Shown here piece after piece: positions 19,056 through 39,617 of a stretch of DNA of 64,000 bases. Below the pieces are notes generated by a model. That model was not told the origin of the DNA. It searched no databases and was given only the letters and a program-made list of their open reading frames with translations. The first letter of the stretch is position 1, and every line of letters begins with the position of its first letter. The position numbers and the translations under genes are program-made. This DNA comes from Elusimicrobiota bacterium (GTDB lineage: Bacteria; Elusimicrobiota; Elusimicrobia; UBA1565; JACRDR01): NCBI GenBank assembly GCA_041694815.1, contig JBGFSC010000033.1:8148-72147 (forward strand), written 5' to 3'.

Positions 19056-20909
19056 ATGTGCGGTATCGCCGGAGCCCTTCGCCTCGACGGGGCCCCTCCC
19101 CGCGCCGAGGCCGTCGCGGCGATGCGTGCCGCCCTGGCCCATCGCGGGCCGGACGACGAAGGGCAATGGTCCCAGGGGCCCGCCTGCTTCGGCTTCCGCC
19201 GCCTGTCGATCCTGGATTTAAGCGGCGGGCGCCAACCGATGTCCTCGGCCGACGGGAGGCTCACCGTCGTCTTCAACGGCGAAATCTATAACCATCCGCA
19301 GCTCCGCTCCGAGCTGGAGGCGGCGGGCGCACGCTACCGCACGCGTTCGGACACCGAGACCATACTCCATCTCTACGAGCGATACGGCGCCGGCGCCTTG
19401 GGTCGCCTACGCGGCATGTTCGCCGTCGCGTTATGGGACTCCTCCAGCGCGGAGCTACTGCTCGCCCGCGACCCGATCGGTATCAAGCCCCTTTATTACA
19501 GCGCCGGCCCGCGCGAGCTGCTTTTCGCCTCCGAATTGCGCGCCTTGGTGGCCGGGGGCGTCTCGACGCGGCTCGATGAGCGCGGCGTTTGGGAATACCT
19601 GCTCGACGGCTTCGTGCGCGCCCCGCGCACGGCCCTCGCGAGCGTCCGCAAGCTGCCGCCGGGGCATCTGCTGAGGGCCGGCGCCGCGGGCGTGCGCGTC
19701 GAGCGATTCTGGAGCCCTCCGCCGGCGCAGACCCGCATCGACGACGAACGGGAGGCTTTGGAGCGGCTGGAGTCCCTGCTCCTCGATTCGGTCCGCTCGC
19801 AAATGCTTAGCGACGTGCCGGTCGGAGCGTTCTTGAGCGGGGGGGTCGATTCGAGCCTGGTGGCCGCCCTCATGACGCGGGCCTCGCCCCGCCCGGTCTC
19901 CACATTCTCGATCGGCTTTTCCGGAGCGCGTCCCGGGCTCGACGAGTCCGCTTACGCCAGGACGGTCGCCCGGCATTTGGGAACCGACCATCACGAGCTG
20001 GTCCTCGGGGCTCGGGTGCTCGACGACCTCGAGCGGCTCTCGGAGTGCTTAGACGAGCCGGTGGCCGATTCGGCGATGCTGCCGACCCTGCTCTTGTCGC
20101 GCTTCGCCCGCGAACGCGTGAAGGTCGTTCTCACCGGAGAGGGTGCTGACGAGCTTTTCGCCGGGTATAACCGGTACAAGGCGGCTCTCCTTTCCGAGCG
20201 CATCCAAGGCCTTCCGGGCTGGCTACGGCCGCCGGCCGCCGCGCTCGCCCGGCGCCTCGGCCGGGGCCGCGTATTCGAGGGCATCCCCTATTCCTCGCTG
20301 GTCGACTGGGCCTCGGCCTTAAGGCACGGGGACGCGGCCGGGCTGCGTTCGGTTTGCGCGCCGGAATTTTTCGAAAGCGCGAGCCGCGAGCCGGCGCCGG
20401 ATGGCTGGGAGCGGCCCGGCCTCGACGCCGCATTGGCCTACGACCTACGCAACGTGCTCTGCGACGCGCTGCTCATGAAGGTCGACAAATCGAGCATGCG
20501 CGCTTCCTTGGAGGCTCGCGTCCCTTTCCTGGACCCGGGGCTGGTCTCCTTCGCGGCCCGGCTCCACCCGAGCCTCAAGATGCGCCGCTTCAAGGGCAAA
20601 TACCTGCTGCGGCGCCTGGCGGAGAAGCTACTCCCGCGGTCCATCGCCTGGCGGCGCAAGCACGGCTTCATCGTGCCTTGGGAAGAATGGCTGAGCCGTC
20701 CCTCCGAGGCGACCTCCGCCTTGCTCAGCGGCCAGACGTTAAGGGACTGCGGTATTTTCGACCTGGCGGCCGTCGGGCGCCTGCGCGGCGCCTTGATCGC
20801 GGGACGCGCCGGCGACGCGGGGCTGCTATTTAGGGTGGCGGTGTTCGCCTTGTGGCTCGACGGGATTCAAGAAAAAGCCGAAAAATTGATAGCATATCGC
20901 CGCTCATGA
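19056..20909 (+). CDS. asnB: asparagine synthetase (glutamine-hydrolysing)
   Basis: N-terminal MCGIAG nucleophile. SGGVDSS PP-loop. About 617 aa. Confidence 0.85.
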   Translation: MCGIAGALRLDGAPPRAEAVAAMRAALAHRGPDDEGQWSQGPACFGFRRLSILDLSGGRQPMSSADGRLTVVFNGEIYNHPQLRSELEAAGARYRTRSDTETILHLYERYGAGALGRLRGMFAVALWDSSSAELLLARDPIGIKPLYYSAGPRELLFASELRALVAGGVSTRLDERGVWEYLLDGFVRAPRTALASVRKLPPGHLLRAGAAGVRVERFWSPPPAQTRIDDEREALERLESLLLDSVRSQMLSDVPVGAFLSGGVDSSLVAALMTRASPRPVSTFSIGFSGARPGLDESAYARTVARHLGTDHHELVLGARVLDDLERLSECLDEPVADSAMLPTLLLSRFARERVKVVLTGEGADELFAGYNRYKAALLSERIQGLPGWLRPPAAALARRLGRGRVFEGIPYSSLVDWASALRHGDAAGLRSVCAPEFFESASREPAPDGWERPGLDAALAYDLRNVLCDALLMKVDKSSMRASLEARVPFLDPGLVSFAARLHPSLKMRRFKGKYLLRRLAEKLLPRSIAWRRKHGFIVPWEEWLSRPSEATSALLSGQTLRDCGIFDLAAVGRLRGALIAGRAGDAGLLFRVAVFALWLDGIQEKAEKLIAYRRS

Positions 20910-22420
20910 GGCGCGCCTTGTGGGGCCTGCTGCTCGTTCTCGCGGCGCCGGCGCACGCCGGCAAAATCCGCCTCGTCGTCTACCACACCAACGACGTGCA
21001 CGGCTGGATCATGGCGCAGCCGGCGACATTCTCGGCCGACGTCTCCTCGCGGATGATCGGCGGCTACCCGGCGCTGGCCCGCCTGCTCTCGCGCGAGAAA
21101 TTGCCCCGCCTGCTGCTCGACGGCGGCGACTGGTTCCAGGGCACGCCGGAGGGCACGCTCACCAACGGCCGCGCCGTCGCCGAGTGCATGAACGCCGTGG
21201 GCTACGACGCGGTGGTGGTGGGCAACCATGACTTCGACCTGGGTCAGGGAAGGCTGCGGGAGCTGGTGTCGGCCCTCAAGATGCCCGTGCTGGGCGCCAA
21301 CGTCTACGATGCCGAGGGCCGCCGCGCCGATTTCGTCAAGCCCTACGTCCTGCGCCGGGTAGGGGGGGTTCGGATCGGCATCTTCGGCCTGCTGACCTCG
21401 GAGATGCGCCGCCTGAGCTTTCCCAAGAACATCGCGGGCTTGCGCTTTAGGCGCGAGGTCGACGAGGCGCGCGAGATGGTGCGGCAATTGCGCCGCGAGG
21501 GCGCCGACGTGATCATCGCCGTCAACCACGTCGGCTTCGAGAATCCCGACGGCTCCGCCTTCGAGGGGGACAAGTTCCTGGCCTCCGAGGTGCCCGGCAT
21601 CGATTTGATCGTCGGCGGGCATACGCACACCCGCCTGCGCCATCCCGTCCGCGATCCGAGAAACGGCACGCTGATCGTGCAGGCGGGATGCTACCTGACC
21701 CAGGTCGGCAAGGTGACCTTGGATATCGACCCGGCGACGAAGAAGGTCATTCATTCGGAAGGGCGCCTGATCAACCTATGGGTCGACGAGCTGGGCGAGG
21801 ACGCGCGGCTCAAGAAAATCGTCGATAGGCACCACCGTTCGGTTGACGGGCAGCTCAACCAGGTCATCGGCACCGCGGCCGAAGCGCTCGACCGAGGCTA
21901 TCACGAGGAATCGGCCTTGGGCAATTGGGTCACCGATTGCTCCCGATCGTGGGCCGGCACGGAGCTCGCTTTCCAGAACTCGGGCGGGCTACGCCGCAGC
22001 CTGCCGGCGGGGCCGGTGACCGTGCGGCGGATATTCGAGATCATGCCTTTCGAGAATGCGGTCGCCACCTTCACCATCACCGGGGCGCAGGTCCGCGAGG
22101 CGCTCGAGCATGGGGTTTCCGGCAGGCGGGGGGTGCTCCAAGTCGGGGGGCTGCGTTTCACCTACGATCCGAGGGCCGCGGTAGGCCGCCGGGTGCGCGA
22201 GATATGGGTCAACGGCGCGCCATTGGAGGAGGAGCGCCGCTACAGCGCCTCGGCGGCCGACTTCATGCTTGAAAGCGGCGACGGGTCCGCGGTGTTCCAG
22301 GAAGTCGCGGATAAAACAGTGACCCCCCTCTTGGTTCGGGACATGCTCTTGTGGTGCGCCGAAAACCATTCTCCGATCCACGCGCCCCCGAAAAATCGTA
22401 TGATGGAGCTCAAGGACTGA
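20906..22420 (+). CDS. secreted bifunctional metallophosphatase/5'-nucleotidase (UshA-like)
   Basis: SP MRRALWGLLLVLAAPAHA. HTNDVHG, GGDWFQGT, GNHDFD and NHVGF metallophosphoesterase motifs, plus a C-terminal 5'-nucleotidase domain. Confidence 0.75.
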   Translation: MRRALWGLLLVLAAPAHAGKIRLVVYHTNDVHGWIMAQPATFSADVSSRMIGGYPALARLLSREKLPRLLLDGGDWFQGTPEGTLTNGRAVAECMNAVGYDAVVVGNHDFDLGQGRLRELVSALKMPVLGANVYDAEGRRADFVKPYVLRRVGGVRIGIFGLLTSEMRRLSFPKNIAGLRFRREVDEAREMVRQLRREGADVIIAVNHVGFENPDGSAFEGDKFLASEVPGIDLIVGGHTHTRLRHPVRDPRNGTLIVQAGCYLTQVGKVTLDIDPATKKVIHSEGRLINLWVDELGEDARLKKIVDRHHRSVDGQLNQVIGTAAEALDRGYHEESALGNWVTDCSRSWAGTELAFQNSGGLRRSLPAGPVTVRRIFEIMPFENAVATFTITGAQVREALEHGVSGRRGVLQVGGLRFTYDPRAAVGRRVREIWVNGAPLEEERRYSASAADFMLESGDGSAVFQEVADKTVTPLLVRDMLLWCAENHSPIHAPPKNRMMELKD

Positions 22421-22421: not shown

Positions 22422-23009
22422 ATGCTCGAAAAGGCCAAGGTGAAGGTAGAGAAGTTCTGGACCTTCGGCAAGAAGACGCTGGCGGCCCTAAGCTTCTGGG
22501 GCCTGGTGTTTAGCCTCGTCACCATCGGGCGCCTGCGCGCCGCCTTCGACTACGACGACACCTTGGTGGACTCAACACCCGCCTTCAACAAGGCCTTTAA
22601 GAGCGGCTCGCAGCCCTTCTCGACCCAGTTCTGGTCCGTCGTCAACCGCAACTACGACCTCGAGCGGCGCAAGCTCTTGAGCAACGCCCTGGCCTGGACG
22701 CTGAGGATTTTCGGCTTCAAGATCACGATCATCGCGACCCGCCCGCCGGTGGAGGCGGAGGCCCTGCGCAAGGAGTGGCGGCATCTGGCCGCGCAATTCG
22801 TGTTCTCGGAGAATCGCGCGGCGCGGCATCTGCTGCTCAAGCAGGCCAATTACGTGCTCTTCTTCGGCGATTCCGATTCCGACATCCAGGCCGGCCGTAA
22901 CGCGAACGTGTTCACCGCCAGAATTCGCCGTAGTCCCAAGTCCTCGTATAAGGAGGATTATCATCCCGGTGCCCTGGCCGAGTGGGTCATTCCCTTGAGC
23001 GAATACTAA
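22422..23009 (+). CDS. HAD-superfamily phosphatase, class B acid phosphatase (AphA)-like
   Basis: N-terminal TM/SP. Motif I FDYDDTLV. Motif IV FGDSDSDI. Confidence 0.5.
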   Translation: MLEKAKVKVEKFWTFGKKTLAALSFWGLVFSLVTIGRLRAAFDYDDTLVDSTPAFNKAFKSGSQPFSTQFWSVVNRNYDLERRKLLSNALAWTLRIFGFKITIIATRPPVEAEALRKEWRHLAAQFVFSENRAARHLLLKQANYVLFFGDSDSDIQAGRNANVFTARIRRSPKSSYKEDYHPGALAEWVIPLSEY

Positions 23010-24446
23010 ATGGATATTCCCGACCATTCCGCCGCGTACCGCTTCCGCCGGATGCTCAATTGGTTTCCGCTCGGCCTAGCCTACGCTTTCTTCTACATGG
23101 GCCGTTACAATCTGACGGTCGCCAAAAGCGCGCTAGGCGACGCCCTGATGACCAAGGCGGACTTCGGAACGATATTCGCCGTCGGCGCTTGGGTCTATGG
23201 CCTGTCCTTCTTGGTGACGGGACCTCTTACCGACAAGCTCGGCGGGCGCAAAGCCATGCTCGCGGGCACCGCCGGCGCGATTGCGGCCAACCTCCTCATG
23301 GGATTGACGCTCTATGGAATCGCGAATTGGGGATGGACAGTCCCGATCTTCTGGTCCTTCATGATTCTCTACGCGGTTAACATGCATTTTCAGAGTTACG
23401 GCGCCGTCGCCATCGTCACGGTCAAGGCGCCGTGGTTCCATGTGCGCGAGCGCGGGACGTTCTCGACGATCTTCGCCGTCATGATCACGCTCGGCATCTT
23501 CTTCGCCTTCGATTGGGGCTTCGCGATCGTCGGCGCGACGCGGAGCCTGCCGCCTGAATCGCTCGGCTTCTGGGGAGCGGTTTTTAAATCCATGATTCCG
23601 GCCGGCGCGGGGGTTGACAGGAACTGGTGGCTCTTCTTCATGCCGGCGTGGCTCCTGGGCGCGTGCTGGGCGGCGATGTTTCTTTGGCTTCGCGACAATC
23701 CCAGCGAAGCCGGCTTTAAGGACTTCGACACGGGAGAGGAATCCGTCTCGCATGACGGCAAGCGCCTGCCGGTGCGCGAGGTTTTCTATAAGATTGTCAC
23801 GCACCCAGTCCTGATCGTCGTTTGCGGTATCGAATTCTGCAGCGGCGTGCTGCGCAACGGCATCATGCATTGGTATCCTCTCTTCGCCGCCGAGGTTGGA
23901 TTCAAGAAATCGTTCTGGATCACCCAAAACTGGGGCTTGACGCTGCTCATCGCCGGGGTGGCCGGCGCTTTCCTTACGGGCTGGGCTTCCGACCGACTAT
24001 TCCAGTCCCGCCGCGCGCCGATGGCGGCCATCCTCTACGGGCTGATGGCGGTCAGTTCGCTCGTGATGGCATTGACGCTCGGCAAGTCGCTGTGGTGGGG
24101 AGGAGCGGCGACGCTGCTCATTTCGCTCTCCGTTATCGGCGTCCACGGCATCCTGTCGGGAACGTCGACTGCAGATTTCGGAGGCGCCAAAAACGCGGGC
24201 GCCGCGGTCGGCGTTGTCGATGGCATGGTTTATCTTGGCACGGGCCTGCAATCGGTAATCATCGGTAACATCACCCCGGTCGGAGAGGCCGCCAAGGATC
24301 CCGGCAATTGGTTTTGGTGGCCTATGTTTCTTGTGCCGTTCTCATTTATCGGCCTCGTTCTGTCGGCGAGAATATGGAACGCCGTGCCGAGGAAGGCCGG
24401 AGCATCGGTCCCGGTACCAAATACCGCAGAAGCGGCGGCAGCCTAG
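23010..24446 (+). CDS. MFS transporter, possibly an organophosphate:phosphate antiporter (GlpT/UhpT)-like
   Basis: About 12 hydrophobic segments. FYMGRYNLTVA and PLTDKLGGRKAM loops resemble the GlpT/UhpT family. The family call is by inspection only. Confidence 0.55.
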   Translation: MDIPDHSAAYRFRRMLNWFPLGLAYAFFYMGRYNLTVAKSALGDALMTKADFGTIFAVGAWVYGLSFLVTGPLTDKLGGRKAMLAGTAGAIAANLLMGLTLYGIANWGWTVPIFWSFMILYAVNMHFQSYGAVAIVTVKAPWFHVRERGTFSTIFAVMITLGIFFAFDWGFAIVGATRSLPPESLGFWGAVFKSMIPAGAGVDRNWWLFFMPAWLLGACWAAMFLWLRDNPSEAGFKDFDTGEESVSHDGKRLPVREVFYKIVTHPVLIVVCGIEFCSGVLRNGIMHWYPLFAAEVGFKKSFWITQNWGLTLLIAGVAGAFLTGWASDRLFQSRRAPMAAILYGLMAVSSLVMALTLGKSLWWGGAATLLISLSVIGVHGILSGTSTADFGGAKNAGAAVGVVDGMVYLGTGLQSVIIGNITPVGEAAKDPGNWFWWPMFLVPFSFIGLVLSARIWNAVPRKAGASVPVPNTAEAAAA

Positions 24447-24578: not shown

Positions 24579-25373
24579 ATGACATCCACGCTTAGACGGC
24601 CGATCATCGCGGGCAATTGGAAGATGAATTTGAGCCTGCGGGAATCGGCCGATTTGATTCGCGCCCTGCTCGACGGCATCCCCGCCCCAGGCTCGGGTCC
24701 CGAGATCATTGTTGCCCCTCCCTTCACCGCCTTGACCGTGGCCGCCGAGCTTCTTAGGGGCCGGCCCGTGCGCCTGGCGGCTCAAAATCTCTTTTGGGAG
24801 AAATCCGGGGCTTTCACCGGCGAGATATCTCCCGCCCAGCTCAAGGACGCCGGCTGTTCCGCGGTGATCATAGGCCACTCGGAACGCCGCAGGCTTTTCG
24901 GCGACAGCGACGCCTCCGTGGCCAAGAAGCTCAAGGCGGCGCTGGGCGAGGGGCTCCTCCCAATCGTCTGCATCGGCGAGACCTTGGAGGAACGCGAAGG
25001 CCAGAAAACCTACCGGGTGCTTGAGACCCAGATCCAGGGGGCCCTGCAGGGACTGGCACCGTCCGAGCTGGCGACCCTGGTGATCGCCTACGAGCCGGTC
25101 TGGGCCATCGGCACGGGCAAAACGGCCACGCCGGCCCAGGCCCAGGACGCGCATCTGTTCATCCGCAAGCAATTAGCGAGGCTGCACGGCGAGGGCTTCG
25201 CCCAGGCCGCGCGAATCCTATACGGGGGATCGGTGGCCCCGGAGAACATCGACTCCCTGATGGCGCAGCCGGATGTCGACGGCGCCTTAGTCGGGGGGGC
25301 CAGCCTAAAACCCGTTTCATTCCTCAGGATCGTTCATTATAAAAAGGAGATTTTGCATGGATCAAAATCCTGA
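24579..25373 (+). CDS. tpiA: triosephosphate isomerase
   Basis: [34 protein letters not shown]. Confidence 0.85.
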
Positions 25374-25995
25374 ATTGGCCAAGCGGATCACCGAAAAGGT
25401 GGTCGAGAGGATGGAGCGCTCCAAGACTCCGATTCCCGTCGGCGTGTCCAACCGGCATGCCCATCTGGACCAGGCGCATTGGGACATCCTTTTCGGCAAG
25501 GAGCTCTCCCCCCGCAAGTTCCGCTCGGTCAAGCAGCCTGGTTTCTTCGCCTGCTACGAGACCGTCGACATCGAGGGCCCCAAGGGTAAAATCTCCAACG
25601 TGCGTCTCATCGCCCCGCACCGCCCCAAGACCCAGATCGAAATTTCTAAAACCGACGCCAGCACGCTGGGCCTGCGCCCCCCGGTGCGGGACTCGGGCAA
25701 GCTGGAAGGGTCGGCCCCCGTGCGCATCATCGGCCCCAAGGGCTCCATCGAGATCAAGGAGGGGCTCATCATCGCCCGGCGGCACATCCATTTCCACCCG
25801 CTCGAAGCCAAGGCCATGGGCGTGCAGGACGGCGAGATCGTCCGGGTACGCGCGGGATCGGGCGGCATCCGCGAACTGATTTTCGAGCAGGTCTTGGTGA
25901 GGGTCTCCGACCAGTTCAGCTTGGAGATCCACCTGGACACGGACGAGGCCAACGCCGCATGGGTGAAGTCGGGCGACTTGGTGAATATCTGTTAA
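25357..25995 (+). CDS. pduL: phosphate acyltransferase PduL (BMC-associated phosphotransacylase)
   Basis: Two PduL repeats with [10 protein letters not shown] and [11 protein letters not shown]-terminal [14 protein letters not shown] matches the PduL end almost exactly. Confidence 0.85.
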
Positions 25996-26005
25996 GGAGG
26001 AGAAC

Positions 26006-26305
26006 ATGGATGCTCTGGGAATGATCGAGACGAGGGGCCTGGTGGCCTGCGTGGAAGCCGCCGACGCGGCGGTCAAGGCCGCCAACGTGCGGCTGGTGGG
26101 TTATGAGAAGGTGGGCACGGGACTGGTGACGGTGCTCTTCCGCGGAGAGGTCGCGGCCTGCCGGGCCGCCTGCGACGCGGGAGCCGCCGGCGCGCAGAAG
26201 GTGGGCGAGCTCGTGGCGGTGCACGTGATCCCGCAGCCTCACCCCGACCTCGAGGGCAAGATGCCCATCTCGCTGCCCGAGACGGTCAATCGCGGGAGGA
26301 AGTAA
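26006..26305 (+). CDS. BMC shell protein, BMC-H (Pfam00936-type hexamer)
   Basis: [52 protein letters not shown]...VHVIPQPH. Confidence 0.85.
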
Positions 26306-26371
26306 CCGTCGTGGGATTAAAACGAATAGGCCCCCTCGGCTACTCGCCTCCCCGTGGGGGAGGCGAGTGAC

Positions 26372-26677
26372 ATGATATTTGCCAAGGTCGTCGGCACCGT
26401 CGTTTGCACGCTTAAGGACGAGAAGCTCGTCGGCACCAAATTGCTCCTGGTCCAGCCGGTGGACTTGGGTCGCCAGCCGAAGGGAAATCCCATCGTCGCC
26501 GTCGATGCCGTCGGCGCCGGCGAGGGGGAGCTGGTGCTGCTGGTGCAAGGATCGAGCGCCCGGCAGACCGTGCGCACCGAGAGCCGCCCCGTCGACTGCG
26601 CGATCTTCGCCATCGTCGACACCGTCGAGAAGGAGGGCAAGACCCTCTTCCACAAAGGCCAGGAGGCCGCCGCCTGA
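26372..26677 (+). CDS. BMC vertex protein BMC-P (EutN/CcmL/PduN family), copy 1
   Basis: MIFAKVVGTVVCT...KLLLVQP...VAVDAVGAGEGELVLL pattern of pentamer proteins. Confidence 0.75.
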   Translation: MIFAKVVGTVVCTLKDEKLVGTKLLLVQPVDLGRQPKGNPIVAVDAVGAGEGELVLLVQGSSARQTVRTESRPVDCAIFAIVDTVEKEGKTLFHKGQEAAA

Positions 26678-28110
26678 TGGCGCTCGAACAGAAGGACATC
26701 GCCGAGATCGTGGGCGAGGTGCTCAAGCGGCTGAGCGCGCTTCCAGCGGATCGGCCGCCCGCCCCGCAGGCGACGGGGACAGGCGTGGTGTTCGCCTCCG
26801 TGGACGAGGCGGTGCGGGCGGCGGCCAAGGCGCAGGCCGCCTTCCAGGAGCTCGGCCTCGAGAAGAGGCGCGCCGTCATCGCGGCGATGCGCGAGGCGGC
26901 CGTCTCGAGCGCCGAACGCTGGGCCAAGATGGCTGTCGAGGAGACCGGCATGGGGCGCTGGCAGGACAAGGTCCAAAAAAACCTCGTCTGCGCCAAGAAG
27001 ACTCCCGGAGTCGAGGACCTGCAGTCGCGTTCTTACACGGGGGACACGGGCCTGACCTTGGTCGAATACGCGCCCTACGGAGTCGTCGCGGCGGTCACGC
27101 CCTCCACCAATCCGGCCGCCACCATCATCAACAACTCGATCTCGATACTCTCGGCGGGTAACAGCGTGGTGTTCGCGCCCCACCCCGCGGCTAAGAGGGT
27201 CTGCCAGGACGCGATGAGGGCCTTAAGCGAGGCCGCCGTTTCCGCCGGGGCGCCCGCCGGAGTGATTACTACCTTCGCCGAGGCGACGCAGGAGAACACC
27301 AAGGCCTTGCTCGCGCATCCCGAGGTCCGCGTCAACATGGTCACCGGCGGCCCGGCCATCGTTAAGGTCGCCATGACCACCGGCAAGACCTGCAAGACCA
27401 TCGCCGCCGGGCCGGGAAATCCGCCTGCTGTCGTTGATGAGACAGCCCTTTTTCCTAAATGCGCCTCCGACATCATCTTCGGGGCGAGCTTCGACAACTG
27501 CGTGCTCTGCACGGCGGAGAAGGAGGCGATCGTCACGCAGGCGGCCCGCGAGCGCTTCCTCAACTCGATGCGCTCCGACTCGAGGGCCTTCGAGCTTTCC
27601 CCCAAGCAGCTCGAGCAATTGACCGCCCTGGTCATCCAGGAGGGCGGGCGCGGCTGCAAGGATCCTCGGCTTAACCGCGACTATGTCGGCCGCGACGCCG
27701 CCGTCATCGCCAAGGGCATCGGGCTCAGCCTCCCGGAGGGCGCGCGGCTTTTATGGGCCGAGGTCCCCAACGATCACCCCCTGATCTGGACCGAGCAGCT
27801 CATGCCTGTCCTGCCGGTGACCGTCGCCCGCGACGTGGACGCCGCCATAGAATTGGCCTACGAGGCCGAGGGCGGCAATCACCACACCGCCTCGATGCAC
27901 TCGATGAACGTCGACCATCTCACGCGCATGGCGCGGCGCATGCAATGCTCCATCTTCGTCAAGAACGCCCCGACGCTATACGGATTGGGCCTGGGGGAGG
28001 GCTACGCCTCGATGTCGATCGGCACGCCGACGGGAGACGGGTTGACCAAGGCGAGCCATTTCGCCCGGCCGCTGCATTGCAGCCTGGTCGGGTATTTTAG
28101 GATCGCTTAG
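26677..28110 (+). CDS. CoA-acylating aldehyde dehydrogenase (PduP/EutE-like) with an N-terminal encapsulation-peptide-like helix
   Basis: ALDH fold with catalytic FDNCVLCTAEKE. N-terminal amphipathic DIAEIVGEVLKRL followed by a Pro-rich linker. Confidence 0.8.
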   Translation: MALEQKDIAEIVGEVLKRLSALPADRPPAPQATGTGVVFASVDEAVRAAAKAQAAFQELGLEKRRAVIAAMREAAVSSAERWAKMAVEETGMGRWQDKVQKNLVCAKKTPGVEDLQSRSYTGDTGLTLVEYAPYGVVAAVTPSTNPAATIINNSISILSAGNSVVFAPHPAAKRVCQDAMRALSEAAVSAGAPAGVITTFAEATQENTKALLAHPEVRVNMVTGGPAIVKVAMTTGKTCKTIAAGPGNPPAVVDETALFPKCASDIIFGASFDNCVLCTAEKEAIVTQAARERFLNSMRSDSRAFELSPKQLEQLTALVIQEGGRGCKDPRLNRDYVGRDAAVIAKGIGLSLPEGARLLWAEVPNDHPLIWTEQLMPVLPVTVARDVDAAIELAYEAEGGNHHTASMHSMNVDHLTRMARRMQCSIFVKNAPTLYGLGLGEGYASMSIGTPTGDGLTKASHFARPLHCSLVGYFRIA

Positions 28111-28118
28111 GAGGAAGC

Positions 28119-28670
28119 ATGCAAGCCAATCTCGCGGTGGGACTTCTGGAGACCTCCTCGATCGCCCGCGGCATCGAGGCGGCCGACGCGATGTGCAAGA
28201 CGGCGTCGGTGACCTTGAATAAGACCAATATCATCGCCCGCGGAAAATACACGATCTTGATCTCGGGGCCCGTCGGGGAGGTTGAATCCTCGCTGCGCGC
28301 CGGCATTGAGATCGCCAAGGACTCCGTCATCCATCAATTCATCATCCGCAACGTGCACCAGCAAGTGCTCGACGCCTTGGAGAAGCGCCTGCCGGTGGAG
28401 GCCTTGGAGGCTGTCGGCATCATCGAGACGAAGGAGGCCATCGCGGCCGTGCACGCCGCGGACTCCGCGGCGAAGGCGGCCCGCGTGCATCTGCTCGAGG
28501 TGAGGGCCGTCGTGCCCGGAGGCAAGGGGCTCGTGACCATGACGGGCGAAGTCGGCGCCGTGCGCTCGGCGGTGGCCGCGGGCATCGCCTCCGTTCCGCA
28601 GGGGATGCTCGTCAGCCATGTCATTATCCCGCAGGCGGATCGGCAGTTATTGGGCGCGGTCGGCAAATGA
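28119..28670 (+). CDS. tandem-domain BMC shell protein (BMC-T, PduT-like)
   Basis: Two BMC domains of about 90 aa each (VGLLETSSIARGIEAADAMCKTASV... and VGIIETKEAIAAVHAADSAAKAARV...) in 183 aa. Confidence 0.65.
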   Translation: MQANLAVGLLETSSIARGIEAADAMCKTASVTLNKTNIIARGKYTILISGPVGEVESSLRAGIEIAKDSVIHQFIIRNVHQQVLDALEKRLPVEALEAVGIIETKEAIAAVHAADSAAKAARVHLLEVRAVVPGGKGLVTMTGEVGAVRSAVAAGIASVPQGMLVSHVIIPQADRQLLGAVGK

Positions 28671-29122
28671 ATCTCGTTATCGGCTCCGACCACGCCGGCT
28701 TCGAGGCCAAGGAGAGGCTCAAGAAATTCCTCCAGGCCCAGGGGCATGCCGTGACCGATTTCGGCTGCTATTCGACGGAGGCTGTCGATTATCCCGATAT
28801 CGCCCAACTCGTCGGCGAGAGCGTCGCGCGGGGCGAGTTCGAGCGCGGGGTGCTTTTGGACGGCTTCGGAGGGGCCGTGGCCTTCGCCGCTAACAAGGTG
28901 CCCGGCGTTCGGGCCGTCTGCGCCTACGACATCGTCAGCGCCCGTTTTTCGGCGGCCCACGAGAACGCCAACGTGCTCTGCGTCGGCGGCAAGACGCATG
29001 GCGAATTGGCCCTGCAGGAGATACTCAAGGCCTTCTTGTCGACCCCCTTCGAGGGCGGGCGGCACGAGCGGCGATTGGCCAAGGTGTTGTCCATCGAGTC
29101 GAAGTACGGGGGAACCAGGTGA
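28667..29122 (+). CDS. ribose-5-phosphate isomerase B (RpiB/LacAB)-like, BMC-locus variant
   Basis: GSDHAGF, AFAANKVPGVRAV, AAHENANVL and GGRHERR align with RpiB. The position of the E. coli catalytic Cys (ILICGTG) reads LLDGFGG here. Confidence 0.75.
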   Translation: MNLVIGSDHAGFEAKERLKKFLQAQGHAVTDFGCYSTEAVDYPDIAQLVGESVARGEFERGVLLDGFGGAVAFAANKVPGVRAVCAYDIVSARFSAAHENANVLCVGGKTHGELALQEILKAFLSTPFEGGRHERRLAKVLSIESKYGGTR

Positions 29123-29400
29123 AGCTGGCTCGGGTGATCGGCCGCGTGTTCTGTGCCCGCCAGTCGGAGGCGATCGACGGCAAAAAGTTGCTCTTGATCC
29201 AGCCCCTCGCGTGGGAAGACGAGACGCCGAAGGGAGACCCGCTGGTCGCTTTGGATGCCGTCGGCGCCGGGGCCTCCGAAAAAGTCTACTGGGTCGCGGC
29301 GCGCGAGGCGGCCGTCGCCTTCGAGGACCTGCCTCCCACCGACGCCGCCGTCGTCGGCATCGTCGAGGGGCATCAGGTCCGAGACTTCAGGAGGCAATGA
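29119..29400 (+). CDS. BMC vertex protein BMC-P, copy 2
   Basis: MKLARVIGRVFCARQ...KLLLIQPL...VALDAVGAGASEKV. Confidence 0.7.
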   Translation: MKLARVIGRVFCARQSEAIDGKKLLLIQPLAWEDETPKGDPLVALDAVGAGASEKVYWVAAREAAVAFEDLPPTDAAVVGIVEGHQVRDFRRQ

Positions 29401-29696
29401 TGTTCTTAGCGGAAGTGGTCGGCAATGTCTGGGGGACGCGCAAACACCCCTCCCTGGAGGGCAAGCGCCTGCTGCTGGTGCGGCCGATCGACCCGATGAC
29501 GGAAAAGCCCCTTGGCGAGACGCTCATGGCCCTAGACGGTGGGGTAGGCTCGGGGCCGGGCTCCGTCGTGTTGGTGATGGACGAAGGGGGTTCCGCCCGG
29601 CAGATTTTAAAGGACGAGAAGGCGCCCGTTCGGGCAGTGGTCTGCGCGGTGGTCGACCAGGTCGCCGCGGGGCGGGAGGCGAAGCGCTATGCGTGA
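29397..29696 (+). CDS. BMC vertex protein BMC-P, copy 3
   Basis: [31 protein letters not shown]...[23 protein letters not shown] start overlaps the stop of copy 2. Confidence 0.65.
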
Positions 29697-30729
29697 GGCC
29701 GAGATCAAGCAGGTCGTCGATGCCGTCGTGCGGGTACTGGCCGAGAAGGGGATGCTCAATAAGGATTGCGGCTGCGGGGCGTCTTCCAAGGCGCACCAGC
29801 CGGTGACGGTAACGACCGGCACGGCCGGCAAGATTTTTTCGGACGCGTGGCGCTCGCCAAGCCCGGCTAAAAGCGCTCCGGTCCGGCCCCAGGCGCAGTC
29901 CCAGCCGGAAGAGGAGATCGAGCATACCTCCGCTCCCGGCTGCCCGCATTGCGCGCCCGTGGCCGAATGTAGCCCCGGGCAACTCTCGGCCCTGGGGGTC
30001 GACCGCATCGCGGTCTGTCACCCCACCAAGAACTGCTCTAAGATCGCTCGCACCGTCGACCATACCCTGCTTAAGCCCAACGCCACCCAGGAGGAGGTCG
30101 CCAAGCTTTGCGAGGAGGCGCGCGCCTACTGCTTCGCCTCCGTCTGCGTCAACCCGAGCTATGTGGCGCTCTGTTCGAGGCTGCTTAAGGGCTCGGGGGT
30201 CAAGATCTGCACCGTCATCGGATTCCCCCTGGGCTCCACCACGCCGACGGTCAAGGCCATCGAGGCGAGGGATGCCATCGCCAACGGGGCTGACGAGATC
30301 GACATGGTGCTAAACATCGGGGCCCTCAAGTCGGGCAATGACGCGCTGGCCGAGGGAGATATCCGCGCGGTGCGCGAGGCCACCCGAGGCAAAGTCTTGA
30401 AAGTGATTTTGGAAACTGCTCTCCTGACCCAGGACGAGAAGCTGCGCGCCTGTAAGCTCGCCAAATCGGCGGGCGCCGACTTCGTCAAGACCTCGACCGG
30501 CTTCGGCGGGGGAGGGGCGACGGTCGAGGATATCCGCCTCATGCGCGGGGCGGTTGGGCCGCTCATGGGTGTCAAGGCCTCCGGGGGCATCCGCGACGCC
30601 GCCACCGCGCAGGCCATGCTGGAGGCCGGAGCGACCCGGCTGGGCACCTCGGCGAGCATCGCGATCGTCACCACGCCGGGCGCCGCTGAGGCCGCCGCCC
30701 CCGGCGCCAAGGAAGGAGGGAAATACTGA
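29689..30729 (+). CDS. deoC: deoxyribose-phosphate aldolase (DeoC) with an N-terminal extension of about 120 aa
   Basis: C-terminal 220 aa align to class I DeoC ([29 protein letters not shown] with the Schiff-base Lys, GVKASGGIR). N-terminus is amphipathic ([19 protein letters not shown]), then a Cys/Pro-rich linker. Confidence 0.8.
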
Positions 30730-31001
30730 TGGCGACACGGATCAAGATGCGAATCGACCTTCAATGCGGGTCCTGCTCCGCCCTGATCCATCAAGCCGAC
30801 CCGCCGCAGCGTTTTTGCCCGTGCTGCGGGGCCGGCTTCGAGCGCTTTTGCCTCAAATGCGGCAAGAAGGTGGACATGTACTTCGAGGAGTGGTGGCCCG
30901 AGGAAGACGAGTGCCTGAGGACCTATTCTCCCGCCAAACGCTGTCCTAGCTGCAATAGCGGCTTGGAAGTCGAAGAACGCGAAATCGAAGAGGGGGACTA
31001 A
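30729..31001 (+). CDS. small zinc-ribbon protein (four CxxC pairs), hypothetical
   Basis: CGSCS...CPCC...CLKC...CPSC in 90 aa. Embedded between deoC and a BMC-H gene. Confidence 0.4.
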
Positions 31002-31300
31002 TGTCAGAAATCCGGGAAGCGCTGGGGCTCGTGGAAACCAAGGGGTTCGTCGGCATGATCGAGGCCTCCGACGCCATGGCCAAGGCGGCCAAGGTGCGGC
31101 TAGTCGGCTACGAGAAGGTGGGCAACGGGCTGGTCACGACTCTTTGCCGGGGCGAGGTGGGCGCCGTGCGCGCGGCCGTCGAGGCGGCTGCCGCAGCCGC
31201 CCAGAAGGTCGGCGAACTGGTGTCCGTCCACGTGATTCCCAGGCCCCACGACGACCTGGAACGGTACCTGGATGCCATCGCCGTGAAGCTCAAGGCGTAA
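31001..31300 (+). CDS. BMC shell protein, BMC-H, copy 2
   Basis: [52 protein letters not shown]...VHVIPRPH. Confidence 0.85.
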
Positions 31301-31324
31301 GCCCTCCGGGCGCGACGCCGGACG

Positions 31325-31558
31325 ATGTACACCGCCGACGACCTTATCGACGCTATTTTCGAATGCCTGCCCCGCGACGCCCGGGCGCCGCGGCCACCCG
31401 CCCCCTCCCCCCGCGGTCGGCCTTTCCTGACGGAGGCGGCCATCAAAAAGGCGTTGACTCCCGGAGCCCGACACCTTACAATACCAAGGGACTCCATCGT
31501 CAGCCCTTTGGCCCTCGATTGGCTGACGCTCAAGGGCGTAGAAATCATCCGCGAGTAG
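31325..31558 (+). CDS. small hypothetical protein in the BMC locus (77 aa)
   Basis: N-terminal helix DDLIDAIFECL. C-terminal LTIPRDSIVSPLALDWLTLKGVEI. High GC3. No family assigned. Confidence 0.3.
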   Translation: MYTADDLIDAIFECLPRDARAPRPPAPSPRGRPFLTEAAIKKALTPGARHLTIPRDSIVSPLALDWLTLKGVEIIRE

Positions 31559-31577: not shown

Positions 31578-32654
31578 ATGGACGTAAGCAGCTTGCTCAA
31601 ATTGATGGTCCAAAGGGAGATTTCCGACATCCATTTCAAGGCGGATTCTTCCCCCGCCTTAAGGATCCATGGCCAGATGATCCCGGCCTCGAACATCCAG
31701 AAGCTTAGCGCCGAGGACGTCAAGGGAATCGCCTATCAATTGATGACCCCCCAGCAGGTCAAGCATTTCGAGGGAGAAGACGAGATGGATTTTGCCTACA
31801 GCCTTCCCGGGGTGGCGCGTTTTCGCATCAACGTCTACCGGCAGAGGGGCTCGGTGGGCCTGACCATGCGGGTAGTTCCCTTGAAGGTGGGTGATTTCCA
31901 GTCGCTCAATCTTCCCGCCCAAGCCTTGACCCGGTTGGCCCAGGAAAGCCGCGGCCTGATCCTGTTTACGGGCATCACCGGGGCGGGAAAAACAACCTCG
32001 ATGAACAGTTTCCTCAACTATATCAACGCCAACTACCAGTACCGGATCATCACCGTCGAAGACCCCATCGAGTTCTATCATCAGGACCTCAAATCCTCCG
32101 TCGTGCAGCGGGAGGTGGGCCACGACACCCGCTCCTTCGCCCACGCCCTGCGGCACGTGCTCCGGCAGGACCCGGACCTCGTCGTCATCGGGGAGATGCG
32201 GGACTTCGAGACGATCCAGGCGGCGATACTGGCGGCCGAGACAGGTCATCTGGTGCTCTCGACCCTGCATACGATGGACGCGGTGCAGACCATCGACCGA
32301 ATCATCGACGCCCATCCCGCGCACCAGCACCCCCAGGTGCGGCAGCAATTGGCCAACACGCTCAAGGGGGTCGTCGGGCAGCGCCTGGTGCCGACCCAGG
32401 ACGGCAAGGGCCGCGTCCCCGCCACCGAGATCATGGTGGCCAACAGCCTGTCCCGGCGGCATATCCTGGAGGGCAAGAACGCCGAGCTCTATAAGCTGAT
32501 GGAGGGCGGCGCCTACTACGGCATGCACACCTTCGACCAGGACCTTATCCGCCTCGTCCAAGAGCAGAAGATCGACCAGAAGACAGCGTTGGAGAACGCC
32601 AGCAATCCCGAGGATATCGCGCTCAAGATGCGCGGCGTTTCGGCGGGGGTCTAA
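31578..32654 (+). CDS. pilT: type IV pilus retraction ATPase PilT/PilU family
   Basis: SDIHFKADSSPALRIHG, Walker A GITGAGKTTS, EDPIEF, Walker B LVVIGEMRD, His box STLHT. Confidence 0.85.
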   Translation: MDVSSLLKLMVQREISDIHFKADSSPALRIHGQMIPASNIQKLSAEDVKGIAYQLMTPQQVKHFEGEDEMDFAYSLPGVARFRINVYRQRGSVGLTMRVVPLKVGDFQSLNLPAQALTRLAQESRGLILFTGITGAGKTTSMNSFLNYINANYQYRIITVEDPIEFYHQDLKSSVVQREVGHDTRSFAHALRHVLRQDPDLVVIGEMRDFETIQAAILAAETGHLVLSTLHTMDAVQTIDRIIDAHPAHQHPQVRQQLANTLKGVVGQRLVPTQDGKGRVPATEIMVANSLSRRHILEGKNAELYKLMEGGAYYGMHTFDQDLIRLVQEQKIDQKTALENASNPEDIALKMRGVSAGV

Positions 32655-33428
32655 GTGGGAGAACCGGAGGGAGAGAAGGAGGTCGAGTCGATCCTGACGG
32701 ATCTGGAGTCGATCTTGTCCGGGACTCCTCCCGCCACCCCGCCGGCCAAGGAGGCGCCCGCCAAGGCGATTGCCGCCAAGCCGGCCGATGTGCCGGAAAT
32801 CAAGCTTTCCGCGAGCACGACCGCACCGGCCGAAGCAACTCCTCCGATTCCGGCATCGGCACCGCCTCCTCCGACCATCTCGCTGCCCGCGGCCGCTCCG
32901 CCGCCGGTTCAAGCCAAGCCAGCGGTCCAGGCTCCTCCCCTGGTCCAAGCGCCGCCACCGGTCCAAGAGCCGCCTCCCGTGTCCGTTCCGACGCCGGCGA
33001 CCGCAGCAACACCGCCCGCTGCCGCGCCGCAGGCTTCCGGGGTTCCCGAGAATACTCCTAAGGACCAGATCCGGCGCGTCGGCTTTCTCTACGCCCCGGA
33101 GCAGAAAGGGAACGTGGAGGAGTTTCTGAAATTCATCGATTCGGTGGCATTGAAGGTGTCCAAGAAACCGTTGTACATCGAACGTGTGATGGTGAGCGAG
33201 TTTCCCGAGCAAGGAGATCCCAAGTTGGCCTTCGAGCAGGCTAAGGCAGGGAAGGCCGTAGGCGTGGTCGGGGTGTTGGCCTCGCTGCCCGAAAGCAGGA
33301 TACGCGAAATCGAGGAGGTATTCTCTGAAAACGGCATGTTTTATCGGACCGTGCATCCAGACGACATGCTCAAACGCTCGACCGTGGTCGATCTGCTCGT
33401 AGACCTGATGTTGAGCAGCCCTGCTTGA
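32655..33428 (+). CDS. Pro/Ala-rich hypothetical protein with a conserved-looking C-terminal domain
   Basis: Low-complexity PAPA-rich N-terminal half. Globular C-terminal roughly 120 aa (IRRVGFLYAPEQKGNVEEFLKFIDS...). Overlaps the pilT stop. Confidence 0.4.
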   Translation: MGEPEGEKEVESILTDLESILSGTPPATPPAKEAPAKAIAAKPADVPEIKLSASTTAPAEATPPIPASAPPPPTISLPAAAPPPVQAKPAVQAPPLVQAPPPVQEPPPVSVPTPATAATPPAAAPQASGVPENTPKDQIRRVGFLYAPEQKGNVEEFLKFIDSVALKVSKKPLYIERVMVSEFPEQGDPKLAFEQAKAGKAVGVVGVLASLPESRIREIEEVFSENGMFYRTVHPDDMLKRSTVVDLLVDLMLSSPA

Positions 33429-34981
33429 CGATGCTGGAGATGTGGGAGCTCATCCCTTCGCCGACCGCCGCCCAGCCCCATCGGCAAACGTTGTGGCTCA
33501 AGGGCCAATTGGCGGACGTCAACGCCGTCATCCGCCGTTTGGGCTCGGTTTGCGGCCGCCCCCGCAAGGGGTCGCGCGGCAAGTTCAATTTCAGTCTCTA
33601 CCTGCATCCCGACGGCCCGCAGGCCATCGGGAATATCCAGTCGGCCCTACGGGACATCACCTCACCGGGCTCCACCGCCGCGACGCCGCCGGTCAAGCCG
33701 GCTCCGGCCGCGCCCGCCGAAGCTCCGGAACTCCCCGCGCCCAAGCCGATCGTTCAGGAAACGCCGAGCGCGACTCCGGCCGCAGCCGCTCCAGCGCCCG
33801 CTCCGCAGCCGCTCTTCGGCGCCGCGCTGGAGCCTAATAGCGACTACAATTTCGAGGCCATGGTGGTGGGTTCCTTCAACCGCTTCTCGCACGCGGCTGC
33901 CAACTCGGTGGTCTCCAATCCCGGGACGATGTACAACCCCCTGTTCCTCTTCGGCAATCCCGGCACGGGCAAGACCCACCTACTGAGCGCCATCGCCCAG
34001 GCCTTGCAGCAGCCGGTTTGGCTCAGCAGCGGGCCACGGCTGGCGCGGGCCGTCGCGCGGGCCGCGCCAGCGGGAAGGATCGGAGAGCTAGAGGAGTTGG
34101 CCGAACGCTCGCGGGCCCTGCTCATCGACGACATCCATTTACTCTCGGTCAACGAGCACAACCAGGACGGACTGGTGAAGCTGCTGCGCCGTTTCTTTTC
34201 GGCCTCCAAACAGGTCGTCATGAGCTCCGCCTACCCCCCGCGCGCGTTGACGGCCATGGAGCAGGCCCTGGATTTCAAAATCGCTTCGGGCTGGGCGGTC
34301 GAAATGAAGGCCTTTGGCCCGGAGGTCCAGCGCGAGATCCTCGCCATGGCCCTGCAGCGCGCCGGGTTTGCCAACGACGAGGTTGCCGTAACGCAGGTCC
34401 TGGGCCATATCGGCGAGGCCTTTTTCGATCTCGGCCGGTGGCTGCGGCGCCTCAAATCCCTCGCCGCGTTGCGCGCCGCCGCGGGCCAGGCCGCCTCGCT
34501 GCACGAGCTGCTGCCCGTCCTTTTCGTGCCCGAGCTGCCGGTGCCGGAGCCCCTTTCCGACGAGGAGGTCCAGGGCCTTCTCGGGCAGATGCCCCCGGCG
34601 CCCGCCGGCGCCGCCCAAGGCGCCGTCTTTTTCCCGAAAGGACGTAGCGCCCATGCCGAACTTATGCTGCGCCGTTTGGCCGCCGTGTCCAAGCCCAACG
34701 GCTGGCCATTCCCGATCCGCCGGGCGGCGCTGGAGGCCTACGACCCGGACCAGCTCTTCGGCGTGCCTTTCGAAATAGCCGAGGCCTGTGAAAACGCGCG
34801 CGCCGGAGCTGCCCTGGTGTTGGGCCCCGCTCCCGGTTCGGGCCTGGCGGGCCGGGAGACCGAGCTCGCGCACGCGGTGGGGCATATACTCGAAAGCTTG
34901 GGCATACGGTTCGGTTGGATCCCATTTAGCCGAGTCAACGAGCTGGCCCCGTATTTTCGCGCGGGGCTCGATCTGAGATGA
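33425..34981 (+). CDS. DnaA-like AAA+ ATPase paralog lacking the C-terminal DNA-binding domain IV
   Basis: YNFEAMVVGSFNRFSHAAANSVVSNPGTMYNPLFLFGNPGTGKTHLLSAIAQAL matches DnaA domain III closely, including Walker A. LLIDDIHLL is Walker B. No domain-IV HTH. Pro/Ala linker at the N-terminus. Confidence 0.6.
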   Translation: MTMLEMWELIPSPTAAQPHRQTLWLKGQLADVNAVIRRLGSVCGRPRKGSRGKFNFSLYLHPDGPQAIGNIQSALRDITSPGSTAATPPVKPAPAAPAEAPELPAPKPIVQETPSATPAAAAPAPAPQPLFGAALEPNSDYNFEAMVVGSFNRFSHAAANSVVSNPGTMYNPLFLFGNPGTGKTHLLSAIAQALQQPVWLSSGPRLARAVARAAPAGRIGELEELAERSRALLIDDIHLLSVNEHNQDGLVKLLRRFFSASKQVVMSSAYPPRALTAMEQALDFKIASGWAVEMKAFGPEVQREILAMALQRAGFANDEVAVTQVLGHIGEAFFDLGRWLRRLKSLAALRAAAGQAASLHELLPVLFVPELPVPEPLSDEEVQGLLGQMPPAPAGAAQGAVFFPKGRSAHAELMLRRLAAVSKPNGWPFPIRRAALEAYDPDQLFGVPFEIAEACENARAGAALVLGPAPGSGLAGRETELAHAVGHILESLGIRFGWIPFSRVNELAPYFRAGLDLR

Positions 34982-39395: not shown

Positions 39396-39560
39396 ACGAC
39401 AGCTTTTACGCGCTCCATAACAACGGACGCGGCGCCGACCGGAGTGTCGGCGCCGGACTTCGTCGCGCTTCGCGCGACGAAGTTCGAGGTTTCTCGCGAG
39501 TATTCCGCGCGACGAAGCTCTTTAACGACAGCTTTTACGCGCTTTGGGCGCGTGACTCGG
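39395..39560. repeat. structured intergenic repeat element, copy A (about 1.8 tandem units with a perfect 25-bp palindrome)
   Basis: aacgacagcttttacgcgct occurs at 39395 and 39525. Palindrome cttcgtcgcgcttcgcgcgacgaag at 39458-39482. A reverse-complement copy is at 47713-47787. Confidence 0.7.
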
Positions 39561-39617
39561 CGCCGAGTTCGGGATTTAACAGATGGAACTTATTGGCATG
39601 AGAATCGTATATACGGT

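Follow-up and report, generated by a model that had tools for sequence, protein, structure and literature searches.

Sugar-phosphate-utilising (SPU) loci form a class of bacterial microcompartment (BMC) whose definition goes back to Axen et al. 2014 (PMC4207490) and which is counted among the most prevalent BMC types. In the published SPU model, deoxyribose-5-phosphate is split into glyceraldehyde-3-phosphate and acetaldehyde, and the latter is carried on to acetyl-CoA and then to acetyl-phosphate (PMC4207490, PMC8217296, PMC11585597). The cleaving enzyme, deoxyribose-5-phosphate aldolase (DERA, or DeoC), is unique to SPU loci among BMC types and bears an N-terminal extension in all of them (PMC11585597), and a triplet of genes for pentameric shell proteins (BMC-P) is a hallmark of all SPU loci. 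Here we analyse the region at positions 24579-31558 of a stretch of contig JBGFSC010000033.1 (hereafter the window, meaning the whole 64,000 nucleotides of DNA that were analysed), which very probably constitutes an intact SPU1-type microcompartment locus of an Elusimicrobia genome operating the published deoxyribose-5-phosphate pathway. An original prediction made from the letters of this stretch had proposed an SPU locus at 25357-31558 and had described the class as rare. The class assignment and the proposed chemistry via acetaldehyde, acetyl-CoA and acetyl-phosphate both agree with what is reported below and with the published model, whereas the description as rare does not fit a class of this prevalence, in which the architecture seen here corresponds to SPU1.

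The SPU1 subtype comprises 62 loci, found exclusively in Elusimicrobia (Sutter 2021, Nat Commun, Supplementary Data 2); per-subtype counts were taken from the main text of Dwyer 2024 and the supplement of Sutter 2021. By definition, genes for DERA and an RpiB-type ribose-5-phosphate isomerase (RPI) adjoin two BMC-P genes, and an aldehyde dehydrogenase (AldDH), a phosphotransacylase (PTAC), a pfam00121 isomerase and the BMC-P triplet are present (Sutter 2021). The two hexameric shell (BMC-H) paralogs of SPU1 are distinguished by KAAK/PRPH and KAA(N/D)/PQPH interface residues, and the BMC-T(s) protein is PduT-related and lacks the pore cysteine (Sutter 2021). An alcohol dehydrogenase is usually missing from SPU1. 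With respect to biochemistry, work on the class is limited to subtype SPU6, for which DERA activity and a complex between DERA and RPI have been demonstrated (Dwyer et al. 2024, PMC11585597).

The window locus contains 13 intact open reading frames (ORFs) on one contig, all on the + strand, in the order TPI-PduL-H-P-AldDH-T-RpiB-P-P-DERA-Znr90-H-orf77, where TPI is triosephosphate isomerase and Znr90 and orf77 are our names for two small ORFs of 90 and 77 codons. All ten genes listed in the original prediction (two BMC-H, one BMC-T, three BMC-P, PduL, AldDH, RpiB-like and DeoC) were recovered at 25357-31558 above Pfam gathering cut-offs, with NCBIfam models in agreement. The extent given there held for these genes and failed at its upstream boundary, which leaves out the adjacent TPI gene at 24579-25373. 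Adjacent genes either overlap, by 1-17 bp, or are separated by no more than 66 bp, GGAGG-like ribosome-binding sites precede many of the starts, and GC content at third codon positions (GC3) is 0.75-0.88 across the locus genes. Moreover, three PF00936 genes (one of them tandem) and three PF03319 genes fall inside 5.3 kb. Six shell genes and four pathway enzymes packed into 6.2 kb cannot be a chance cluster, because the shell and enzyme genes are dense and their junctions overlap or are shorter than 70 bp. Strand and spacing cannot by themselves delimit the locus, since nearly all predicted genes between 3.4 and 64 kb lie on the + strand. A scan of 18.5-36.5 kb for promoters and terminators returned counts not above shuffled expectation, so that operon limits could not be set from it; an Rfam scan of the whole window gave no match in or beside the locus, and no tRNAs were found in the window.

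The shell genes reproduce the SPU1 arrangement. BMC-H paralog 1 (26006..26305; PF00936, E 7e-28) carries KAAN at residue 24 and PQPH at residue 76, and paralog 2 (31001..31300; PF00936, E 6e-28) carries KAAK at residue 28 and PRPH at residue 80, the two proteins being 71% identical. The three BMC-P proteins share pairwise identities of 40-44%, with BMC-P 1 at 40-43% to the other two. One is the solitary member of the triplet (BMC-P 1, 26372..26677; PF03319, E 1e-32), for which starts at 26354 and 26372 are alternatives and the ATG at 26372 is the most likely. The other two form the adjacent pair, namely BMC-P 2 (29119..29400; PF03319, E 1e-19), which has 4-bp overlaps on both sides, and BMC-P 3 (29397..29696; PF03319, E 2e-23), which is joined to it through an ATGA overlap. 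Three BMC-P paralogs had been taken as a novelty in the original prediction; they are instead the defining triplet of the class. The PduT-type tandem protein, BMC-T(s) (28119..28670; two PF00936 domains, E 4e-41), is 183 aa long, and its sole cysteine, residue 26, is far from the pore loop IIARGKY, in which an Ala occupies what we take to be the position of the PduT pore cysteine. No other BMC-domain gene and no BMC-T(dp) was found in the window by Pfam scan. This and the other window-wide negatives below refer to Pfam scans of most predicted genes in the 64 kb and, for the few others (ribosomal proteins, TopA, XerC, PurA and small hypothetical proteins), to inspection by eye. The shell would then combine a complementary pair of BMC-H hexamers, a single PduT-like BMC-T trimer with no Fe-S pore, and three BMC-P pentamers.

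The core enzymes are equally well matched to their families. The PduL-type PTAC (25357..25995; PF06130, E 4e-68) scores 240 bits against a cut-off of 209 for NCBIfam PRK15070, matches Rhodopseudomonas palustris PduL (5CUO) at E 1e-49 with its HxH motifs conserved at residues 34 and 143, and begins with an amphipathic helix at residues ~5-21 (hydrophobic moment 0.73) that is a putative encapsulation peptide. The CoA-acylating aldehyde dehydrogenase of EutE/PduP type (26677..28110; PF00171) scores 577 bits against a PRK15398 cut-off of 403 and aligns at E 2e-113 to 5JFL, a BMC aldehyde dehydrogenase, its catalytic Cys278 (CTAEKE) falling on the template Cys; an encapsulation-peptide helix at residues ~4-20 (hydrophobic moment 0.70) is followed by a Pro-rich linker. 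TPI (24579..25373; PF00121, E 1e-92) ends in a 17-bp overlap of its stop with the PduL start and also adjoins PduL in nine related loci (L001, L002, L004, L006, L007, L010, L013, L084, L086). Alignments of TPI homologs start at ATG 24579, and the 17 residues encoded upstream of it are neither helical nor amphipathic. TPI is therefore probably cytosolic, as judged from the lack of an N-terminal encapsulation peptide.

The signature enzyme, DERA (29689..30729; PF01791), is a member of the TIGR00126 deoC equivalog family (290 bits against a cut-off of 117), matches DERAs in the PDB at E 3e-85, and is ~60-68% identical in its core to housekeeping DERAs. Residues D205, K238, K267 (the Schiff-base lysine), K296 and the C-terminal Tyr346 are invariant among 32 homologs; assignment of their roles draws in part on established knowledge of DERA enzymes. 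The catalytic set was otherwise mapped from E. coli D102/K167/K201 (PMC11585597). Ahead of this core lies an N-terminal extension of 118 aa that consists of an amphipathic helix (residues 3-20, hydrophobic moment 0.68), strands and a conserved GTAGKxF motif, and for housekeeping DERAs, that of Streptococcus among them, alignment begins no earlier than residue ~118. The extension (29689-30042) also holds Cys85-x-x-Cys88 and Cys110, invariant in the 32 homologs, and a mostly conserved Cys116; their pattern suggests a metal or disulfide site, and they are without mention in the SPU literature consulted. When hydrophobic moments were compared over 14 N-terminal residues, PduL, AldDH, DERA and orf77 fell at 0.66-0.73, RpiB at 0.46 and Znr90 at 0.35. 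Recruitment of DERA, aldehyde dehydrogenase and PduL as cargo would accordingly proceed via their N-terminal amphipathic helices.

The RpiB-like protein (28667..29122; PF02502, E 6e-48) has an altered active site. Specifically, alignment to Clostridium thermocellum RpiB (3HE8) places Asp (D65) at the catalytic Cys and Phe (F67) at a Thr, so that DGFG replaces CGTG, whereas the phosphate- and sugar-binding residues D8, H9, H98, R132, H133 and R136 are kept. DGFG is the sequence in 9 of the 12 RpiB genes compared across 11 SPU1 loci, and RpiB of other SPU subtypes has DGAG. The coding sequence of the window protein opens straight into the Pfam domain; there is no in-frame start further upstream and no encapsulation peptide. 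In SPU6, RPI was essentially inactive on ribose-5-phosphate and formed a 1:1 complex with DERA, and the same study left a different RPI substrate open (PMC11585597). By analogy, the window RpiB probably enters the shell as a complex with DERA and, given the Asp in place of its catalytic Cys, serves there as a scaffold or as an enzyme with changed specificity. That DGFG is fixed in most SPU1 loci while the binding residues are kept bears directly on the question of scaffold versus enzyme. Two departures from this pattern were observed: L007 has two RpiB genes side by side (4749-5620), one an Asp variant (DGTG) and one with the canonical Cys (CGTG), and the sole RpiB copy of L042 is canonical (CGSG).

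The arrangement described above is conserved beyond this contig. Look-ups of DERA homologs yielded syntenic loci in an Elusimicrobia metagenome-assembled genome (MAG; L001) and on a 2.2-Mb metagenomic contig (L002), and scans of species-representative genomes and metagenomes added L004-L010, L013, L042 and L084-L088. Across 17 Elusimicrobia-type loci (L001-L010, L013, L042, L084-L088) the gene order is the same wherever the sequence spans it, and tblastn of every window protein against the related loci likewise found the order unchanged throughout, at DERA identities of 52-83%. Insertions are occasional: L002 has a gene for a HEAT-repeat protein, L001 one of the inositol-monophosphatase family and L007 the second RpiB. 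Because the order is the same across these loci, DeoC and RpiB are firmly linked to the shell genes; linkage of the two to shell genes had been proposed as a check on the original prediction, and it holds throughout the related Elusimicrobia loci whose sequence covers this part. The sampled SPU loci from outside the phylum have different gene orders, in line with their being other subtypes, as seen in Xenobia (L016), UBP9 (L022), Vulcanimicrobiota (L035) and Holophagaceae (L062 and L079). In L035 the whole SPU locus (5025-11456) sits between the genes for the Era GTPase and RecO, which are common bacterial neighbours, and looks like an insertion there.

Overall, every published SPU1 hallmark was found in the window locus, and the closest source-named homologs of DERA, Znr90 and orf77 all come from Elusimicrobia MAGs. 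In terms of function, the proposed role is that deoxyribose from scavenged DNA would be catabolised inside a protein shell. Deoxyribose-5-phosphate would enter the shell and be cleaved by DERA into glyceraldehyde-3-phosphate plus acetaldehyde; the volatile, toxic acetaldehyde would be trapped and converted by the CoA-acylating dehydrogenase to acetyl-CoA and NADH; and PduL would form acetyl-phosphate from acetyl-CoA and phosphate, regenerating CoA inside the shell. Acetyl-phosphate and glyceraldehyde-3-phosphate would then exit, the former to yield ATP through a cytosolic acetate kinase and the latter to feed glycolysis through TPI. What the sequence shows is the identity of the genes, their intact active sites, the helices, the conserved order and the subtype; the substrate used in vivo, encapsulation, what becomes of the products and how NADH is reoxidised are inferred. 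The original prediction had regarded both NAD+ and CoA recycling as unresolved. This still applies to NAD+, whereas CoA recycling is encoded in the locus itself, by PduL.

Several points weigh against this reading and temper our confidence in it. NADH has no evident sink, as neither an alcohol dehydrogenase nor a PduS/PduT pair occurs in the 64 kb and the BMC-T lacks an Fe-S pore cysteine; the original prediction had noted that alcohol dehydrogenase and acetate kinase are absent from the locus, and both proved absent from the entire window as well. Nor does the window contain a nucleoside phosphorylase or phosphopentomutase, such that both substrate supply and ATP harvest are unseen in it. The sugar-phosphate-binding residues of RpiB are all kept, and the protein may have a catalytic role outside the model. 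No SPU compartment has been purified or shown to metabolise deoxyribose-5-phosphate in vivo, the evidence for SPU6 DERA being in vitro only (PMC11585597). Finally, the assignment to Elusimicrobia comes from named homologs and not from a marker-gene phylogeny. Nonetheless, the missing alcohol dehydrogenase is not noteworthy in itself, because this is the norm for SPU1, and the absence of visible NAD+ regeneration is a known feature of the subtype that is not peculiar to the window copy.

Retention of the RpiB binding residues is also the starting point for an alternative in which the same shell and core enzymes act on another substrate, either with the Asp-variant RpiB as an active isomerase feeding DERA or with several acetaldehyde-yielding sugar phosphates being used. 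The Cys-to-Asp change is conserved across SPU subtypes and is not decaying, the coexistence of Asp-type and canonical Cys-type copies in L007 suggests distinct roles, and Dwyer 2024 (PMC11585597) left room for another RPI substrate. Against this stand the high score of DERA as a deoC equivalog and the close resemblance of its core to housekeeping enzymes, the little or no activity of SPU6 RPI and its part as a DERA-binding partner (PMC11585597), and the absence from the locus of any transketolase or kinase. Moreover, isomerisation of an aldose to a ketose at C2 cannot yield deoxyribose-5-phosphate. We consequently consider a different substrate unlikely.

The lack of a regulator, of an NAD+-recycling enzyme and of above-chance promoter or terminator signals at the locus could be taken to mean that it is a decaying or non-functional remnant, its shell genes kept by synteny only and forming no organelle. 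Such a reading is very hard to reconcile with 13 intact ORFs of high GC3 that have ribosome-binding sites and translational-coupling overlaps, with conserved catalytic residues and shell interface motifs, and with an order and content kept in loci whose DERAs are only 52-70% identical, which indicates purifying selection; we regard it as highly improbable. We give still less credence, close to none, to assignment to another BMC class (EUT, PDU, GRM, HO or MIC) with DeoC and RpiB as passengers, although the AldDH/PduL core is common to EUT2, PDU and GRM, and BMC-P triplets occur in HO, MIC and MUF as well. In the scans described above, the window yielded no ethanolamine ammonia-lyase (EutBC), no diol dehydratase (PduCDE), no glycyl-radical enzyme and no class II aldolase, a result that also answers the comparison with EUT, PDU and GRM suggested alongside the original prediction. 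Here DERA, the SPU-only enzyme (PMC11585597), lies between shell genes and has the SPU-type N-terminal extension, and all SPU1-specific features accompany it.

What remains of particular interest in this SPU1 locus are its two small proteins, together with the known question of NAD+ recycling in the subtype. The original prediction had singled out two unexplained small ORFs as a source of novelty, and this was justified, as the 77-aa and 90-aa ORFs are real, conserved and previously undescribed genes. The first of these, orf77 (31325..31558), follows the second BMC-H gene in 13 of the 14 SPU1 loci that have sequence there, with a weak match in L014. A total of 482 homologs of 77-106 aa were collected, none with a Pfam domain, and those with a source name are all Elusimicrobia hypothetical proteins. 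The N-terminus forms an amphipathic helix (residues 4-14, M(L/Y)TxDDLIDxI) resembling an encapsulation peptide, and a variable Pro/Ala linker connects it to a conserved domain of ~45 aa (GRxFLSExDIKK...AIxSPLAxDWLxLxGI) with a predicted beta-alpha-beta-alpha-beta fold (AlphaFold2 (AF2), mean predicted local distance difference test (pLDDT) 75). Searches of orf77 against Pfam gave no match, Foldseek against the PDB gave none below E 0.78, and sequence matches in the PDB were dismissed as chance (homeodomain, E 0.055).

A relationship to the eut_hyp family (TIGR02536) is suggested by similarity of orf77 to positions 162-206 of the 207-position model (E 8.5e-5), at 22.3 bits against a cut-off of 152.6. 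By these sequence measures orf77 is not a eut_hyp member, since it falls below the cut-off and is without the central flavoprotein-like domain. Proteins of ~250 aa in three other SPU loci, L016, L022 and L035, are likewise matched by the orf77 profile, at the N-terminus as well as the C-terminus (hhalign E 2.6e-5, probability 75%); they are encoded between BMC-H and BMC-P genes and have weak eut_hyp matches of their own. In SPU4 loci, eut_hyp with an N-terminal encapsulation peptide is near-universal. Taken together, these similarities are consistent with orf77 being a minimal relative of eut_hyp that has lost the central domain, and make it a candidate shell-cargo adaptor. An identification of C. 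difficile CD1925 as the eut_hyp protein was considered and rejected, CD1925 being EutQ. In any case, orf77 is a near-universal and unreported SPU1 component, and its small domain links SPU1 with SPU4, other SPU loci and EUT2.

The second small protein, Znr90 (30729..31001), has a GGAGG upstream and overlaps its neighbours by 1 bp at each end. Eight invariant Cys are arranged in four CxxC knuckles (C13/16, C30/33, C41/44, C72/75), with C62 in addition and a conserved FEEWWPE(E/D)DEC motif. The gene lies between DERA and BMC-H in 8 of 16 SPU1 loci. One search returned 41 homolog clusters, of which the source-named ones are all from Elusimicrobia, and 11 representative clusters were found among 1.84 billion proteins; Znr90 is confined to one Elusimicrobia subclade. 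Sub-threshold matches to DZR in 40 of 42 family members, and to RUBY_RBDX (the rubredoxin-like domain of rubrerythrin) in 26 of 42, point to a double zinc-ribbon or rubredoxin-like protein, with zinc and iron not distinguishable at the level of sequence. The AF2 model was poor (pLDDT 63), and Foldseek gave no match below E 1.3. In this SPU1 locus, then, a lack of visible NAD+ regeneration coincides with a clade-specific eight-Cys protein encoded between DERA and a shell gene. One could imagine both small proteins as functional parts of the SPU1 organelle, with orf77 a minimal shell-cargo adaptor and Znr90 an iron-binding electron outlet that reoxidises NADH. This proposal is speculative, and we rate its chances as slim. 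If true, the electron outlet would account for a compartment that has neither an alcohol dehydrogenase nor PduS/PduT, and the SPU1 problem of an 'incomplete core' would be solved.

Immediately upstream of TPI, the window encodes a secreted 5'-nucleotidase with a signal peptide (20852-22420, +), a class B acid phosphatase of AphA-like type (22422-23009, +) and a distant major facilitator superfamily (MFS) transporter of organophosphate:phosphate antiporter (OPA) type (23010-24446, +). Of the seven loci with upstream sequence, six have the nucleotidase, the phosphatase or both ahead of TPI (L001, L004, L006, L013, L084, L086), and an unrelated AsnB is likewise present in L004 and L006. The MFS gene is found there in the window only, and L002 has none of these genes. 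This trio may be a nucleotide-scavenging front end or, given that AsnB is kept upstream in L004 and L006 too, may reflect plain synteny; it is suggestive in that it fits the DNA-scavenging idea, with membership in the locus unproven.

Downstream, a PilT gene (31578-32654, +) begins 19 bp after orf77 and is followed by a gene for a 518-aa DnaA-type AAA+ protein (33425-34981, +; PF00308). The N-terminal ~60 aa of the latter are conserved and there is a linker rich in Pro and Ala, whereas the DnaA C-terminal DNA-binding domain is absent. Further on lie ComM/YifB (39444-41138, +) and DprA (42492-43535, +), the latter beside TopA; together with PilT they make up a group of DNA-uptake or competence genes close to the locus. 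The DnaA-type gene occurs just downstream of SPU1 in ten loci (L001, L002, L004, L006, L009, L014, L042, L084, L086, L088), distant relatives included, and its start is no more than 10 bp from orf77 in L002 and L004. A GAF histidine kinase is also encoded downstream of the locus and is conserved in Elusimicrobia together with the DnaA-like ATPase. PilT-like genes are present a few kb from the SPU loci L016, L022 and L035. A specific link between SPU and type IV pili or competence was considered and set aside, as RecO, RuvX, YceG and uridine kinase lie between the pil genes and the locus in L035. The PilT adjacency is accounted for by plain chromosomal synteny, because the AsnB, DnaA-like ATPase and GAF kinase flanks are conserved too.

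Elsewhere in the window, a 176-aa ORF and a protein with HEAT-like repeats are encoded downstream of a cyclic di-GMP-I riboswitch (49147-49224, +; RF01051, 56.9 bits). After these comes a giant ORF (at least 4,419 aa) with a signal peptide and bacterial Ig-like domains (Big_13), which runs off the window end (within 49334-63995, +) and is likely to be a surface adhesin controlled by cyclic di-GMP. Five paralogous small membrane proteins (starting at 10578, 12408, 12980, 13594 and 15127, all +) have a signal peptide, the motifs SGIxFGE and PI(I/V)VKEPxNH, and no Pfam match. These paralogs (10578-15843) are interleaved with genes for two secreted WD40 beta-propeller proteins (11270-12415 and 14106-15098).

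In comparison with known systems, the window locus shares with the ethanolamine microcompartments of type EUT2 the confinement of acetaldehyde, its oxidation to acetyl-CoA by an EutE-type AldDH, the recycling of CoA by a pfam06130 PTAC and the occurrence of the eut_hyp family. EUT2 in turn has EutBC as its aldehyde source, B12 support genes and an alcohol dehydrogenase that recycles NAD+, none of which is present in the window locus. SPU4, from Firmicutes, has AldDh, DERA, RPI, PTAC and TPI in common with the window locus, and also an accessory protein that starts with an amphipathic helix and ends in ~45 residues similar to the C-terminal ones of orf77. It differs in that a BMC-T is usually missing and that roughly half of the TPIs bear encapsulation peptides. 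The SPU4 eut_hyp protein has its full length of ~200 aa, with a flavoprotein-like middle domain, whereas orf77 has the helix and the C-terminal domain only.

SPU6, from Chloroflexi (PMC11585597), shares with the window locus a DERA signature enzyme with a helix-containing N-terminal extension and conserved catalytic Asp/Lys/Lys, an RpiB-like partner with Asp for the catalytic Cys, the BMC-P triplet and the step from acetaldehyde to acetyl-CoA. SPU6 has no PTAC, has BMC-T(dp) and places the AldDh encapsulation peptide at the C-terminus, whereas the window locus has PduL, a single-layer BMC-T and an N-terminal AldDH peptide. The SPU6 RPI also has its own N-terminal encapsulation peptide and a ~75-aa linker, in contrast to the window RpiB, which has no extension.

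The closest match is SPU1 itself (Sutter 2021). The likeness covers the phylum; the enzymes DERA, RpiB-like, AldDh, PduL-type PTAC and TPI; the placement of RpiB and DERA on either side of two adjacent BMC-P genes with the third elsewhere; two charge-complementary BMC-H proteins; a PduT-related BMC-T(s) that has no cysteine in the pore; the absence of BMC-T(dp); AldDh and PTAC bearing encapsulation peptides; and the lack of an alcohol dehydrogenase. No structural difference from the subtype was found, and the published SPU1 summary makes no mention of orf77 or the eight-Cys Znr90. The window copy has no PduS/PduT pair within 64 kb, and differs from the other loci examined in the insertion of the OPA-like MFS transporter gene upstream of TPI. 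The locus is an ordinary copy of a catalogued subtype and leaves the accepted picture unchanged; with its 13 intact genes on one contig, it provides a clean and complete reference example of SPU1.

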